64,000 nt of DNA from the NCBI GenBank assembly GCA_963700145.1, contig OY969474.1, positions 3,456,001 to 3,520,000 of the forward strand, given 5' to 3'. Position numbers and translations under genes: made by a program. This DNA is from an uncultured Acidobacteriota bacterium (GTDB taxonomy: Bacteria; Acidobacteriota; Thermoanaerobaculia; Multivoradales; UBA5704). The notes beneath the pieces were generated by a model. That model was not told the DNA's origin, did not search any database, and worked only from the letters and a program-made list of their open reading frames with translations. This document shows positions 2,512 through 14,686 of the stretch, piece after piece; the first letter of the stretch is position 1; each line of letters begins with the position of its first letter.

Positions 2512-3810
<1,299 letters not shown>

Positions 3811-5058: not shown

Positions 5059-5191
5059 GGCAGCGACCCACGAAGGGCTCGGGTCCTGTGCATCGGCCGC
5101 TATCGAACCTCGTCAGGCCCGGAAGGGAGCAGCGATAAGGTATGCGCGCCGAGTGCCGCAGACAAACCGGAGCCCTTCGTGGGGCGCTGCC
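5059..5191 (+). ncRNA. ffs: signal recognition particle RNA (4.5S)
   Basis: Helix-8 motif TCAGGCCCGGAAGGGAGCAGC inside a long hairpin; extended -10 TGTTATCCT upstream; directly before dnaX. Confidence 0.92.
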
Positions 5192-10337: not shown

Positions 10338-11360
10338 TTGAGCATCCACAACCTGTTGCGCTCCTGGGAGCCGCTCTCCCACTTCAGCGAGGAGCAGCTC
10401 GGGCAGCTCGTGCGCTGCCTGGCGCGCAACCGCTACCCGGCCGGCACGTCGGTCCTCCAGGAGGGGGACCCGACGCTCGACGCCTATCTCGTGGCGAGCG
10501 GCAACGTGCGCATCCAGCGCCAGACCCCGTATGGCATCTTCAGCCTGGCGGTCCTCGGGCCGGGCGAGCTCTTCGGCGAGACCAGCTTCGTCGATCACGA
10601 GGCGCGCTCCGGCGACGCCCTGACGCTCGCCGAGACCGAGCTGCTGACCTTGAACCCGGTGGCCGCGGCGGCGACCCTGGAGCGCGACCCGCGCTTCGCG
10701 GTGGCGCTCTACTGGACCTTCTGGAAGAGCCTGGCGCAGAAGCTCCGGCAGACCAACCAGAAGCTCACTCACTTCTTCCCGGAGAGCGGGCTGCCGGCCG
10801 CGCCGGGGCCGCACGAGGTGCTCGACGCGAGCGGCGCGATGGCGGGGTTCCGCGTCGACTTGGCCGACAAGCGGAAGCTCTTCCAGGAGCAGCGCCTGTC
10901 GGCGATGGAGATCAACTTCCTCTCCTCGCTGTCGAAGGAGAAGAAGCTCGCCCCCAGTCAGGTGCTCTTCCGCGAGGGGGAGTCGGGCAGCGAGATGTAC
11001 GTGGTGCTCGACGGGCGGGTGATGATCAGCAAGTACATCCCCGGGGCCGGCGAGGAGGCGCTCGCCTTCCTGGAGCGCGGCGACTGGTTCGGCGAGATGG
11101 CGCTGATCGACAACCAGCCGCGCTCGGCCACCGCCAAGGCGCACGACGGCGGGGCGGTCGTGGTGACGATCCCGCGCGAGGTCGTCGAGGGCCTCCTCGA
11201 CATCCACCGCATCTCCTCGCTGCGGCTGCTCAAGATCCTCTGCAGCCTGGTAGCGCGGCGCCTCCGGGAGCTCGACGACAAGATCATCGGGTGGTTTATC
11301 CTGGCCGGCGGCCACGGGAACTGGGCCGCGGAGTACGACGCCGGGCCGGTCGCGGGCTGA
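10338..11360 (+). CDS. tandem cyclic-nucleotide-binding domain protein (no HTH)
   Basis: Two cNMP cassettes: GELFGETSF...RSGDA and GDWFGEMAL...PRSATA; TTG start. Confidence 0.85.
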   Translation: MSIHNLLRSWEPLSHFSEEQLGQLVRCLARNRYPAGTSVLQEGDPTLDAYLVASGNVRIQRQTPYGIFSLAVLGPGELFGETSFVDHEARSGDALTLAETELLTLNPVAAAATLERDPRFAVALYWTFWKSLAQKLRQTNQKLTHFFPESGLPAAPGPHEVLDASGAMAGFRVDLADKRKLFQEQRLSAMEINFLSSLSKEKKLAPSQVLFREGESGSEMYVVLDGRVMISKYIPGAGEEALAFLERGDWFGEMALIDNQPRSATAKAHDGGAVVVTIPREVVEGLLDIHRISSLRLLKILCSLVARRLRELDDKIIGWFILAGGHGNWAAEYDAGPVAG

Positions 11361-12420
11361 CCTTCCCTTCCGACCCGAGCGCGGCCAGCACCTTCCCGAC
11401 CAGCGACGAGAGCGGCAGCGCGCAGCGCCCCTCCGCGTCGAACCAGCCCGCCTCGTTTCCCTCCGCCAAGGAGCCCGTGTCGGCGACCTCGGCGCGGTGG
11501 ACCGCCACCTCCAAGTCGCGGAAGGTGACGGCGTGGCGCACGCGGGCCGCCGGCGCGGCGAGGCGCCAGCTGCCGCCGTAGCGCCGCGCCAGGAGCGTCT
11601 CGGCGGAAACGGAGCCGCCGTCGAGCTCCGCCCAGGGCAGCTCCCAGAAACCGGCCATCAGCGGGTCGCCCTCGGACCGCCGGACGAGCAGCACCCGCCC
11701 GCGCCACTCGACGACCGCCACCGCCACGCGCCGAGCCTCGCGCGCCCGGCGCGGGCGCCGTTGGGGGTAGGGCTCGGGATTGCCCTCGGCCGCCGCCCGG
11801 CAGCCGGGGAGGAGCGGGCAGGCGGGACATCTCGGGCGGCGCGGGGTGCAGATTGTCGCGCCCAGCTCCATCAGCGCCTGGTTGCTGTCGCCCGGGCGGG
11901 CCGGGTCGAGCAGCTCGGCCGCCGCCGCCCGCAGCCGCCGGCGGGCCGCCGCGCTCTTGGGGTCCTCGGCCAATGCCAGGAACCGCGCCAGGAGGCGCTC
12001 GACGTTGCCGTCGAGGACCGGCACCGGCGCGCCGAAGCAGATGCTGGCCACCGCCGCGGAGGTGTAGTCGCCCACCCCGGCCAGCTCCCGCCACCCCTCC
12101 GGCGTCTCCGGGAAGCCGCCGCGCTCGACCACCCGCCGCGCCGCGGCATGGAGCTGCCGGGCGCGCCGGTAGTAGCCGAGCCCAGACCAGAGGGCGAGCA
12201 CCTCCCCCTCCCCGGCCGCCGCCAGCGCCTCGACCGTGGGGAACCGCTCCAGGAACCGCTGGTAATAGGGGAGAACGACGTCGACCCGCGTCTGCTGCAG
12301 CATCACCTCGGAGACCCAGACCGGATAAGGCTCGCGGGTCCGTCGCCAAGGCAGGTCGCGCCGCACCCGGTCGTACCAGCTCAGCAGCTCATGCCGCACC
12401 GCGTCAGGGTGAGTAGGCAC
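11296..12420 (-). CDS. mutY: A/G-specific adenine glycosylase
   Basis: RDLPWR, VWVSEVMLQQT, WSGLGYYRRAR, GVGDYT, DGNVER, CTPRRPRCPACPLLPGC Fe-S motif. Confidence 0.96.
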   Translation of the reverse strand: MPTHPDAVRHELLSWYDRVRRDLPWRRTREPYPVWVSEVMLQQTRVDVVLPYYQRFLERFPTVEALAAAGEGEVLALWSGLGYYRRARQLHAAARRVVERGGFPETPEGWRELAGVGDYTSAAVASICFGAPVPVLDGNVERLLARFLALAEDPKSAAARRRLRAAAAELLDPARPGDSNQALMELGATICTPRRPRCPACPLLPGCRAAAEGNPEPYPQRRPRRAREARRVAVAVVEWRGRVLLVRRSEGDPLMAGFWELPWAELDGGSVSAETLLARRYGGSWRLAAPAARVRHAVTFRDLEVAVHRAEVADTGSLAEGNEAGWFDAEGRCALPLSSLVGKVLAALGSEGKVSPRPARRRTPRPSSRGRRPG

Positions 12421-12490
12421 GGCCGCCAGTTTGGCACGGCGGCCGGCGCTCCGCAGCAAGGGGTGGGAACTCACAGCGAAGGGCGGGCAG

Positions 12491-12551
12491 CTCCCTCCCC
12501 CGTGCAGCGGGGGAGGGCCAGGGAGGGGGTATCGAAGTCAATGCAGGAAAG
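12491..12551. repeat. REP-like palindromic element, copy 1
   Basis: CCCTCCCCCG...CGGGGGAGGG hairpin, GGGAGGGG, then GTCAATGCAGGAAAG, shared with 28622-28683. Confidence 0.65.
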
Positions 12552-12613
12552 CCCGCCGACTGAACCGCGTCGGAGTAGCCGCGGAAACATGCCCTGCCTC
12601 TCCGGTGCCGCCT

Positions 12614-12649
12614 AAAAAACTAGCGGCCCTCGGTTTCCCGAGGGCCGCT
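12614..12649 (-). terminator. intrinsic terminator
   Basis: 12-bp perfect stem AGCGGCCCTCGG-GAAA-CCGAGGGCCGCT followed by AGTTTTTT on the minus strand. Confidence 0.9.
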
Positions 12650-12823
12650 GATTTTGAAGTATGGGGGGGAGGCCCCGTCTCTCCGGTTGGGTTTCTGAGG
12701 ATCTACCCCTGGTTTAGGGGGATGGGATTAGCTTTCTCAGAGGGTGAGACCCGAAGGGTCTCGATGTAGGATGGGTTGTTCTTGGTAGGTGAAGCCTCCC
12801 CACATACTTTCTTCTGCGTTGCC
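12614..12823 (-). ncRNA. candidate sigma54-dependent small RNA (~210 nt)
   Basis: Bounded by a perfect sigma54 promoter and a terminator; long closing stem plus internal hairpins; no convincing CDS. Confidence 0.65.
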
Positions 12824-12833
12824 GCGTTCTCAC

Positions 12834-12849
12834 TGCAACCGCTGTGCCA
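12834..12849 (-). promoter_or_regulatory. sigma54 (-24/-12) promoter
   Basis: Minus strand reads TGGCAC-AGCGG-TTGCA, an exact match to TGGCAC-N5-TTGCW. Confidence 0.85.
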
Positions 12850-12907
12850 GGGGTCGGGCTTCCCCGTAGGAGGCCCGTGGCGGCCCCTCCGGGTACCCGC
12901 CTGTTCA

Positions 12908-12943
12908 TGCAATAACTGCCAAACGCTTAGTGGCATTTCTGCA
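12908..12943. promoter_or_regulatory. palindromic upstream activator-like site
   Basis: TGCA-ATAAC-TGCCA-N9-TGGCA-TTTC-TGCA, ~85-120 bp upstream of the predicted sigma54 start. Confidence 0.45.
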
Positions 12944-12970
12944 CGGCGGCCAGGGGGCTAAAATCGCCGG

Positions 12971-14686
12971 GTGAAGAAGCTGGTGGCGGTCTTCTTGGTG
13001 CTGGTGGCGGTGGCGGTGGCCGCCGCCGGGGCCGGCATCCTGCTGTCGCGCGGCGGGCGGAGCCTCGGCGGCCCCACGGTCCTCGTCTGGCGGCTGGACC
13101 GGACGATTCTCGAGCAGGCCCCCACCTCCGGCTTCCCCTTCGCGGCCGGCGCCACCCTCGACAGCATGGCCCAGCTCTACCCCGCCCTCCGCGCCGCGCG
13201 CGCGGACGACGGGGTCAAGGGGCTCGCCGTCTACATCCAGGGCGCCGACTTCGGCCTCGCCAAGGCGCAGGAGTTCCGCCGCCAGCTCGCCGCGCTGCGG
13301 CAGGCGGGGAAGTTCGTCGAGTGCTACCTGGAGACGGCCGGCGAGGGCTCCAACGGCACCCTCGCCTACTACCTGGCGAGCGCCTGCGAGCGCATCCACC
13401 TGGCGCCGGCCGGGGACCTCAACCTCCTCGGCCTCTTCGCCGACAGCGTCTTCCTGCGCGGTGCCCTCGAGAAGCTCAAGATCGACCCGGCCTTCAGCTC
13501 GGTCGGCCGCTACAAGAGCGCCGTCGAGTCCTTCACCCAGACCGAGCACTCGCCCGAGGCCGAGGAGGCGATGAACGCCGTCCTCGACGGCTTCTACGGG
13601 CAGCTCGTGGCCGGGATCGCCGCGGCGCGCCGTCTGCCGCCGGCCGAGGTGCGGCGCCTGATCGACGGCGCCCCCTACTCGGCCCCCGAAGCGCTGCGGC
13701 TGAAGCTGATCGACGCCCTCGCCTACCCCGACCAGTTCCGCGACCGCATCGAGGAGCGCGCCGGCGGCGAGCCGCGCCTGGTGCGGCTGCAGGACTACGG
13801 CGGCCGCGGCAACCCCTTCGCCGGCAAGACCATCGCCGTGGTCTTCGCCCTGGGGACGATCGTGCGCGGCCACGGCGGCATCGAGCCCTGGACGCAGGAG
13901 GTCTTCCTCGGCGCGGAGAGCCTGGCCGAGATCCTCTCCGACCTGGCCGACGACGGCGGCGTCGCCGCCGTCGTGCTGCGCGTCGACAGCCCGGGCGGCT
14001 CGGCCCTCGCCTCCGACTTGATCCTGCGCCAGGTGGAGCTGCTGGCGCGCGAGAAGCCGGTCGTGGTTTCGATGTCGGACGTCGCTGCCTCGGGCGGCTA
14101 CTACATCGCCGCCAAGGCGCACAAGATCGTCGCCGAGCCGGCGACCCTGACCGGCTCGATCGGGGTCTTCGGCGGCAAGCTCGTCACCCGGCGCCTGCAG
14201 GAGGAGCACCTCGGCGTCACCCACGACACGCTCAAGCGCGGCGCCAACGCCGACATCTACACGACGCTCGCGCCGTTCAGCGCCGCGCAGCAGGCGCGGG
14301 TGGACGCCGGGATGCGCCGCGTCTACGACACCTTCGTCGGCCACGTGGCGCGGGGGCGCAAGCTCTCGCCGCGCGAGGTCGAGGCGGTGGCGCAGGGGCG
14401 GGTGTGGACCGGCGAGGAGGCGCGGCGGCGGCGGCTGGTCGACGAGCTCGGCGGCTTCGACCGCGCGCTCGAGCTGGCGCGCGCCGAGGCCGGGATCGCG
14501 GCCGGCGCCGCGGTCCGCCTGGCCTTCTACCCCGAGCCGGCGAGCTTCTGGGACCTGCTCTTCGACGGCGAGGAGGAGCCGCTCCTGCCCTCCTCGCTGG
14601 TGCGCCTGCTGCGCGCCCTCGACCCGCCGGCCGCCGGCGCGCTCGAGCTGCCGCGCGAGATCGCGCGATTGGCCCGGCCGTTCTGA
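12971..14686 (+). CDS. sppA: signal peptide peptidase SppA (two-domain)
   Basis: N-terminal TM, YYLASA, GRYKSA, RVDSPGGSA, VAASGGYYIA, TGSIGV, AQGRVWTG. Confidence 0.93.
   Translation: MKKLVAVFLVLVAVAVAAAGAGILLSRGGRSLGGPTVLVWRLDRTILEQAPTSGFPFAAGATLDSMAQLYPALRAARADDGVKGLAVYIQGADFGLAKAQEFRRQLAALRQAGKFVECYLETAGEGSNGTLAYYLASACERIHLAPAGDLNLLGLFADSVFLRGALEKLKIDPAFSSVGRYKSAVESFTQTEHSPEAEEAMNAVLDGFYGQLVAGIAAARRLPPAEVRRLIDGAPYSAPEALRLKLIDALAYPDQFRDRIEERAGGEPRLVRLQDYGGRGNPFAGKTIAVVFALGTIVRGHGGIEPWTQEVFLGAESLAEILSDLADDGGVAAVVLRVDSPGGSALASDLILRQVELLAREKPVVVSMSDVAASGGYYIAAKAHKIVAEPATLTGSIGVFGGKLVTRRLQEEHLGVTHDTLKRGANADIYTTLAPFSAAQQARVDAGMRRVYDTFVGHVARGRKLSPREVEAVAQGRVWTGEEARRRRLVDELGGFDRALELARAEAGIAAGAAVRLAFYPEPASFWDLLFDGEEEPLLPSSLVRLLRALDPPAAGALELPREIARLARPF

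Follow-up and report, generated by a model that had tools for sequence, protein, structure and literature searches.

A probable sigma-54-dependent family of structured small RNAs encoded upstream of mutY in an order of Acidobacteriota

The DNA analyzed in this work is a stretch of 64,000 nucleotides (nt), hereafter referred to as the window, from an uncultured Acidobacteriota bacterium (GenBank assembly GCA_963700145.1, contig OY969474.1, positions 3,456,001 to 3,520,000). On its minus strand, between the genes sppA and mutY, the window very probably harbors a gene for a structured non-coding RNA transcribed from a sigma-54 promoter. An initial annotation, made on the letters of the window, had proposed here a complete sigma-54 transcription unit for a novel RNA of about 210 nt; the comparison with related genomes agrees with this proposal, the promoter, the structure and, in the window and many other copies, the terminator being conserved and the flanking sequences not. 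Judging from the sequences, the gene is of a type already known but belongs to a new family, which often occurs in two or three tandem copies upstream of mutY, an aspect that the initial annotation does not mention. As for the explanation that we consider the best for the locus as a whole, i.e., a small RNA (sRNA) gene switched by an activator of sigma-54 and acting in trans through C-rich pairing, its chances are about even.

The promoter described by the initial annotation as perfect, TGGCACAGCGGTTGCA, indeed matches the consensus TGGCAC-N5-TTGCW throughout, and it is the sole match in the window with up to one mismatch. Thirteen perfect matches, including this one, are present in the whole genome (5.46 Mb, 95% complete). 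A total of 0.87 matches with up to one mismatch is expected by chance per window, and at least one was found in 59 out of 100 shuffled sequences; taken by itself, the match does not exceed what chance would give in 64 kb, and the weight of the argument rests on its conservation. The motif GGCA[CT]-N5-TTGC[AT] is present in 58 of the 59 distinct copies sharing a strict core sequence, 145–172 nt upstream of this core. Moreover, a -24/-12 motif was retrieved in 108 out of 116 copies defined by a covariance model (distinct copies whose upstream sequence extends for 60 nt or more), 30–44 nt before the start of the model match and in one case at 56 nt, and 107 aligned promoters yield the consensus GGCAcgg..gTTGCA. 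When the sequences of the genus are compared, both promoter hexamers (-24 and -12) are kept, as is the sequence from the predicted start through the T-tract, while the upstream spacer and the sequence following the terminator are not; the conservation begins at the predicted start itself (12821-12825). The genome also possesses the gene coding for sigma-54, rpoN (one Sigma54_DBD match, 221 bits), and 19 Sigma54_activat matches, about 15 of which are strong.

In many copies, a GGAAT-like element lies unusually close to the sigma-54 promoter. It is about half conserved, its majority letters G, G, G, A, A, and T occurring in 56, 65, 51, 51, 50, and 48 of the 107 promoters, respectively. Farther upstream, the block GCAGAAATGCCA-N9-TTGGCAGTTNTTGCA had been interpreted in the initial annotation as a palindromic, enhancer-like site containing a motif like that of the integration host factor (IHF). 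This interpretation found no support: the block contains a weak palindrome, TGCCA-N9-TGGCA, with arms of 5 nt only; no inverted repeat with a 6-nt seed exists at 12908-12943; and TGCCA-N9-TGGCA has just four counts over both strands of the genome, none of them, in the same scan, upstream of any other sigma-54 consensus match. The block is kept in four of the five sequences of the genus (L001-L004) and partly in the fifth (L005), and it may serve the divergent sppA gene as promoter/operator or, alternatively, be the site of an activator. A further perfect sigma-54 site of the genome, at 1176144, is followed by a similar-looking sequence (GGAGGCUCCAAC); it precedes a gene for a secreted protein and is not a paralogue.

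For the 216 nt between positions 12825 and 12610, the computed folding energy is -92 kcal/mol (z = -7.1), which none of 200 shuffled sequences equals. The fold contains all the stems listed in the initial annotation, that is, the closing stem, the hairpin GAGACCC-TTCG-GGTCTC, the arm CTGAG/CTCAG with its cap CCCCT/AGGGG, and the GAAA-capped terminator with its T6 tract. A three-helix model was written on alignment A1, obtained with MAFFT on 58 copies (after dropping L048, see below). In this model, P1 pairs the 5' sequence GGGGAGGYYCC with the 3' sequence GGGGCCUCCCC, P2 is formed by GAGAUC/GAUCUC, and P3 by CCCCU/AGGGG. Although the MAFFT alignment is not fitted to a structure, 95.6% of its cells pair, and none of 500 shuffles reaches its covariation score. 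A second alignment, A3, was built with the covariance model and comprises 120 rows, 119 of them distinct, including 13 distant homologues from other families. In A3, which is fitted to the model and hence leans towards its own structure, 97.1% of the cells pair, and compensatory changes occur in 19 of the 23 modelled pairs; none of 500 shuffles reaches any of the five measures adopted, and slid controls pair at 47–76%. The covariation whose search among homologues had been suggested by the initial annotation was retrieved on these measures. According to the same alignment, compensatory changes affect 11 of the 12 pairs of P1 and five of the six pairs of P2, with 99.3% of the P2 cells paired. 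The copies carry P2 variants such as GAGAUC/GAUCUC and GAGGCC/GGCCUC, among others, and in distant homologues P1 is compensated over the whole stem (GGGGAAGGUUCU with AGAACCUUCCCC, and GGAGGUCCC with GGGACCUCC).

An all-against-all scan of the alignment columns for a further helix or a pseudoknot revealed no new covarying helix and only compatibilities between G-runs and C-runs. An alternative helix, formed by the 3' strand of P2 with GAGAGAY, pairs in 71.9% of the cells with many mismatches and was not adopted. In one copy (L084:1010-1158, genome G012), the P1 strands GGGGAAGGAACC and GGAACCAACCCC show symmetric A-A mismatches where A-U and U-G pairs are found elsewhere.

Two alternatives concern the very nature of the element. 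The first one is that the element is actually a member of a known family (6S, Qrr, CrcZ, GlmY, 6C, RsaE, or another of Rfam) or a chance combination of motifs, which the promoter match, taken by itself, would allow in a window of this size. The search of the whole window against Rfam 15 at gathering thresholds did not assign any family to the locus, and with permissive filters (E<=10, positions 12400-13050) no family reached its gathering score; the best hits, in the alignments shown, cover the terminator hairpin only, the top one being BjrC68 with 22.9 bits versus a threshold of 39. The 6S RNA of the genome was found far from the window (G000:C1:4283808-4283989, 81.8 bits), which rules out this identity, and chance is ruled out because of the 119 distinct homologues with covariation. 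The statement of the initial annotation that the RNA matches no family it recognised was borne out, and we regard this first alternative as extremely improbable. Furthermore, full-text literature searches retrieved nothing on this RNA.

The second alternative, put forward by the initial annotation itself, is that a 22-codon open reading frame (ORF), which is present with an ATG start codon, is translated and that the conservation reflects the peptide. An ATG occurs at this position in only 12 of the 119 distinct copies. The five peptides of the genus, 17–34 residues long, diverge after about seven residues through insertions and deletions, also when the window is compared with a relative that is 97% identical; hence, the frame is broken within the genus, there is no codon-level conservation, and what is conserved follows base pairs rather than codons. 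That the locus is a small-protein gene appears, accordingly, hardly credible.

Concerning the distribution of the RNA, the relatives searched at the DNA level comprised 24 genomes from the same family and 16 from other families of the order; 19 of the former and none of the latter contain the region, whose 3' part is the best conserved. When the core CCAACCGGAGA-N2-4-GGGGCCTCCCCC was used as an exact pattern against about 186,000 species genomes, 42 records were retrieved, all of them metagenome-assembled genomes. According to their titles, 25 belong to Thermoanaerobaculia bacterium, 10 to Acidobacteriota/Acidobacteria, three to Holophagales, two to Thermoanaerobaculaceae, one to Thermoanaerobaculum sp., and one to Gemmatimonadales. 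The latter (L048) shares the 24-nt core only and lacks a promoter, a match to the model, and a mutY gene in the vicinity; it was rejected as a member of the family, the match being probably a chance or unrelated occurrence. The covariance model (R1) gave 133 matches in the fetched loci, some of which were fetched twice.

Genome samples at the levels of order, class, and phylum, 151 genomes each, were then scored with stricter filters, so that the following figures refer to the genomes searched. At the order level, 105 of the 151 genomes have a match. By family (f1 to f12), the genomes with a match are 21/21 in f1, 5/6 in f2, 7/8 in f3, 8/8 in f4, 18/22 in f5, 1/1 in f6, 3/21 in f7, 0/21 in f8, 20/21 in f9, 10/10 in f10, 10/10 in f11, and 1/1 in f12; one match comes from an unpublished genome (G279), without which the counts are 104/150 overall and 17/21 in f5, and on which no further result depends. 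The RNA is near-universal in 10 out of 12 families of this single order of Acidobacteriota. In the class-level sample, 12 genomes match, all from this order, and the RNA was not found in those searched from other orders; in the phylum-level sample, only the genome of the window and three others of the same order match.

The genome of the window harbors a single copy of the RNA. In other genera, two or three copies are arranged in tandem, each with its own -24/-12 motif, and the array always precedes mutY. In a FastTree phylogeny of the 119 copies, these group by array position (first, second, or third) across genomes, which points to old duplications that have been retained; some of the arrays in this tree may end at locus edges. 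In L058 and L007, the spacer between the second and the third copy contains short direct repeats, namely an 11-nt unit present three times in L058 and a repeated GTTGAYGG in L007, that are not conserved between genomes.

The window's MutY protein, used as a tblastn query, retrieved MutY in 78 of the 85 fetched loci (a redundant set including distant families), and in the loci compared by coordinates, also in distant families (L074-L076, L078, L080-L082), mutY directly follows the RNA and shares its strand. Only a minority of loci have SppA on the upstream side of the RNA, where the neighbor varies. Of the seven loci lacking MutY, L026 and L047 are short ends of contigs, one is the rejected L048, and in the remaining four (L077, L079, L083, L084) the match lies in a different context. 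In most genera, mutY is preceded by an element of its own, consisting of a TGCCAAAWTGGC-like palindrome, TAGAAT/TATAAT, GACGCG, and the start codon (window 12399-12445; L009, L012, L037, and others); the window's own version of the -10-like hexamer is a decayed CACCCT. To judge from the layout of this element, the mutY mRNA may be leaderless, or nearly so, and accompanied by a site resembling an operator.

The constant position of the RNA in front of mutY, maintained in those 78 loci while the upstream neighbor changes, raises the question of whether the element acts in cis. In this scenario, the sigma-54 promoter would drive a mutY leader whose terminator is partly read through, placing mutY under sigma-54/activator control, and the stable structured part would be a by-product or an sRNA derived from the 5' untranslated region. 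One clade (L034, L036, L058, L063, L007, L053, L072) is consistent with this idea, in that its mutY-adjacent copy ends with a short hairpin lacking a T-run, the upstream copies having clear terminators, so that read-through into mutY may occur there. However, the copy of the window has a strong terminator, further terminators separate the upstream copies of the arrays from mutY, and mutY has, in most genera, the conserved promoter-like element described above. In addition, second copies exist away from mutY (L077, L079, L083, L084), and, as weak evidence, no metatranscriptome contig joins the RNA to mutY. On balance, this scenario seems quite unlikely to us.

Traces of expression were sought in public sequencing runs. 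According to an index of public runs, parts of the region 12300-13300 occur in 20 runs, 14 of which are DNA runs and six soil metatranscriptomes; the share of the sampled words is 0.35–0.42 in the DNA runs and 0.10–0.13 in the RNA runs, the latter being about the share of the stretch occupied by the RNA. Contigs were compared for four RNA runs from three studies. Those from RNA libraries are confined to 12648-12867, with none on mutY, and sppA and a GC-rich hairpin at 12490-12530 are represented by short, mismatched contig pieces only (for the hairpin, one metatranscriptome contig with four differences in 41 nt). One contig of 147 nt, with a depth of 205, covers 12666-12810 without substitutions and continues into the sequencing adapter, so that the fragments ended at 12810; another one spans 12648-12800. 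Several contigs match the conserved core only and then resemble other members of the family, including their terminator hairpins. No contigs cover mutY or the greater part of the terminator and of sppA, which was not counted as absence. These data support, with moderate strength, a far higher transcription of the element than of its neighbors; the strength is only moderate because contigs reveal neither the strand nor the true ends of a transcript and RNA libraries can contain DNA.

As regards the mode of action, the unpaired parts of the RNA deserve attention. The three inter-helix linkers contain 32% A, 36% C, 21% U, and 12% G, compared to 35% G in the window. The family consensus retains the motifs aCCanCC, uCCunCC, CCaACC, and CAGGGGUa, and CCAACCGGAGAGAYGGGGCCUCCCCCC is almost invariant in the window's family. 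The initial annotation had pointed out A/C-rich unpaired parts with repeated motifs and an AAnAAnAA-type sequence; the C/A-rich composition and the CCNACC repeats are family-wide, while the AAnAAnAA-type AAGAACAA is not conserved outside the genus. On this basis, the following model can be depicted: a putative enhancer-binding protein would switch the RNA on at some signal; after its induction the RNA would act in trans, its exposed C-rich linkers most likely pairing with G-rich sites of mRNAs; and Hfq would probably assist this pairing. An hfq gene is present in the genome, the terminator has a U-tail, and the scarcity of G in the linkers, together with the frequency of CC[ACU]ACC given below, also speaks for pairing. 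The pairing step is suggested by analogy, since other C-rich sRNAs of high-GC or Gram-positive bacteria work in this way, and for base-pairing as the mode of action our confidence remains slightly below even.

Several observations weigh against this model. On the side of its regulation, there is no activator gene among the neighbors of the locus in the window, and no common activator site is apparent by eye upstream of 58 copies, where the upstream regions appear as A/T-rich stretches differing between genera and the inter-copy spacers are variable. On the side of the transcription unit, besides the above-mentioned leaning of alignment A3, a hairpin with a T-run was found downstream of 71 out of 117 copies of the family by a crude test, and two contigs from one study (12674-12856 and 12684-12867) run across the promoter, reaching 33–44 nt upstream of the predicted start; either some transcripts start farther upstream or these contigs do not derive from the RNA of the window. 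On the side of the targets, complements of the invariant 15-mer amount, in the genome, to nine non-self sites at two mismatches versus nine for the reversed control, and the only exact anti-Shine-Dalgarno-like sequence, CCUCC, is locked in P1. Finally, among the unpaired letters conservation is highest for CC pairs that enclose variable bases (CCNNCC), a pattern that suits multivalent protein binding no less than a contiguous pairing seed.

This last point leads to the possibility of a protein sponge, in which bursts of the RNA produced by sigma-54 would titrate a protein that binds CC or CCNACC in G-poor single strands, according to a logic like that of CrcZ or CsrB; a cold-shock-domain or KH protein, Hfq, and Rho can be named as guesses for the partner. 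Each copy carries three to four CCNNCC motifs in unpaired linkers, with invariant CC and varying middles, and CC[ACU]ACC occurs 2.69 times per copy versus 0.41 in shuffled copies. The tandem arrays would raise the dosage of a sponge, the contig depth is high in one metatranscriptome, and simple complementarity gave no obvious target. Conversely, no match to a CsrA gene was found in the genome (95% complete) and the repeated motif is CCNACC, which does not correspond to a sponge for CsrA/RsmA; the A-rich motif of the CrcZ type is not conserved; and the subfamilies of paralogues have long been kept distinct, which resembles diverged sets of targets more than plain dosage. A sponge is, in our opinion, a less likely solution, to be given roughly half the weight of pairing. 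A bolder version, which we consider rather doubtful, is that the scaffold of P1, P2, and P3 keeps three or four CCNACC sites open, which would form a multivalent decoy sequestering a global reader of C-rich strands (cold-shock, KH, or Rho), the position before mutY being functional through read-through coupling. If this were true, a sigma-54 signal would reprogramme post-transcriptional control or termination across an order of soil bacteria, and read-through would couple DNA repair to the same signal.

Both the sponge and the pairing model, the latter being the one we prefer, have counterparts among known systems. In Vibrio, Qrr1-5 are paralogous quorum-regulatory sRNAs, each with a sigma-54 promoter and a terminator. 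The family described here shares with them the presence of several paralogous sRNA genes with their own sigma-54 promoters and terminators and, putatively, an Hfq-type architecture and control by bursts dependent on an activator. It differs from them in the absence of an Rfam match, in the structure (a closing stem around two hairpins versus a row of stem-loops), in the length (about 200 nt versus about 100 nt), in the tandem arrangement at one fixed locus, and in the phylum. The other C-rich sRNAs that act by pairing include 6C (Actinobacteria), RsaE/RoxS (Firmicutes), and the tandem CcsR1-4 (Rhodobacter). Likewise, the new RNA has exposed C-rich motifs able to pair with G-rich mRNA and, as CcsR, tandem siblings; however, its C-rich motifs lie in linkers and not in hairpin loops, CCNACC does not correspond to an anti-Shine-Dalgarno sequence, a separate sigma-54 promoter precedes each copy, and no Rfam match links it to these families.

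CrcZ/CrcY of Pseudomonas and Azotobacter are Hfq/Crc sponges that depend on sigma-54 and CbrB and can lie in tandem. The new RNA resembles them in being non-coding, in its probable dependence on sigma-54, in the repetition of a short motif within its unpaired regions, and in its tandem copies. Nevertheless, the new RNA repeats CCNACC instead of AAnAAnAA, its single A-rich motif is limited to the genus, it has no Rfam match, and no activator gene lies beside it. Other sigma-54-dependent sRNAs are GlmY (Enterobacteria), Pxr (Myxococcus), and NrsZ (Pseudomonas), the last one consisting of three tandem modules. These resemble the new RNA in their -24/-12 promoter, in the known cases served by an activator of the NtrC family, and, for NrsZ, in the tandem arrangement; they differ in that their activator gene is usually adjacent or known, while none is near the new RNA, and there is no homology.

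Acidobacteriota are among the most abundant soil bacteria, and we know of no functionally studied sRNA in this phylum. The family described here offers a good starting point: it has a fold supported by covariation, its origin is ancient, it is widespread within one order, and soil metatranscriptomes contain it. It represents a new family for RNA catalogues and shows a conserved coupling to mutY. The definite class of its promoter makes the upstream signalling pathway findable, and the activator, together with the partners of the RNA, would expose a regulatory circuit in largely uncultured organisms.

The coordinates of the features are reported in Table 1.

Table 1. Features of the sRNA locus and of the adjacent genes (positions refer to the window, the first letter being position 1).
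Feature	Position	Strand	Description
sppA	begins 12971	plus	Peptidase_S49; divergent from the RNA
Upstream block GCAGAAATGCCA-N9-TTGGCAGTTNTTGCA	12908-12943	minus	centered at about -100 from the predicted start
GGGGAAG	12859-12865	minus	window version of the GGAAT-like element; 10–15 nt upstream of the -24 GG
Sigma-54-type promoter TGGCAC-AGCGG-TTGCA	12849-12834	minus	perfect TGGCAC-N5-TTGCW; -24 GG 12848-12847, -12 GC 12836-12835
Predicted transcription start, about 12823	12821-12825	minus	from promoter geometry, 12 nt past the -12 C
sRNA gene (very probable)	12823-12614	minus	between sppA and mutY
Conserved structured core, about 150 nt	12808-12660	minus	match to model R1, 124.6 bits
P1, 5' strand AGUAUGU-GGGGAGGCUUC	12791-12809	minus	from the fold; GGGGAGGYYCC part family-wide
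CCUACC	12784-12789	minus	first CCNNCC motif, P1/P2 linker
CCAUCC	12769-12774	minus	second CCNNCC motif; family consensus uCCunCC
P2 hairpin GAGACCC-UUCG-GGUCUC	12746-12762	minus	supported by covariation
22-codon ORF	12737-12805	minus	ATG start; judged not a gene
P3 arm	12695-12740	minus	outer CUGAG/CUCAG genus-specific
P3 inner part CCCCU-loop-AGGGG	12706-12721	minus	family-wide, strongly conserved in sequence (CAGGGGUA)
CCAACC	12685-12690	minus	motif before GGAGAGAC
P1, 3' strand GGGGCCUCCCCCCCAUACUU	12657-12676	minus	from the fold; compensated variants
Intrinsic terminator	12614-12649	minus	12-bp stem with GAAA loop (12649-12622), then T6 (12619-12614); genus-conserved
mutY	11296-12399	minus	Pfam HhH-GPD and NUDIX_4; probable GTG start at 12399; longest ORF to 12474

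Beyond sppA, the window contains dnaA, dnaN, recF, gyrB, and gyrA. Since dnaA lies 2 kb from the RNA locus and this cluster of replication-origin genes adjoins it, the location "near oriC" given in the initial annotation is fair.

The GC-rich hairpin at 12490-12530 (CUCCCCCG...CGGGGGAG) is located between the terminator of the RNA and mutY, within extra sequence; it is shared by the window and L003, is missing from the 97%-identical L002, and resembles a small inserted repeat element. Finally, other RNA genes of the window code for the bacterial small RNA of the signal recognition particle (5077-5175) and for two tRNAs of 87 nt each (3606-3692 and 3724-3810).

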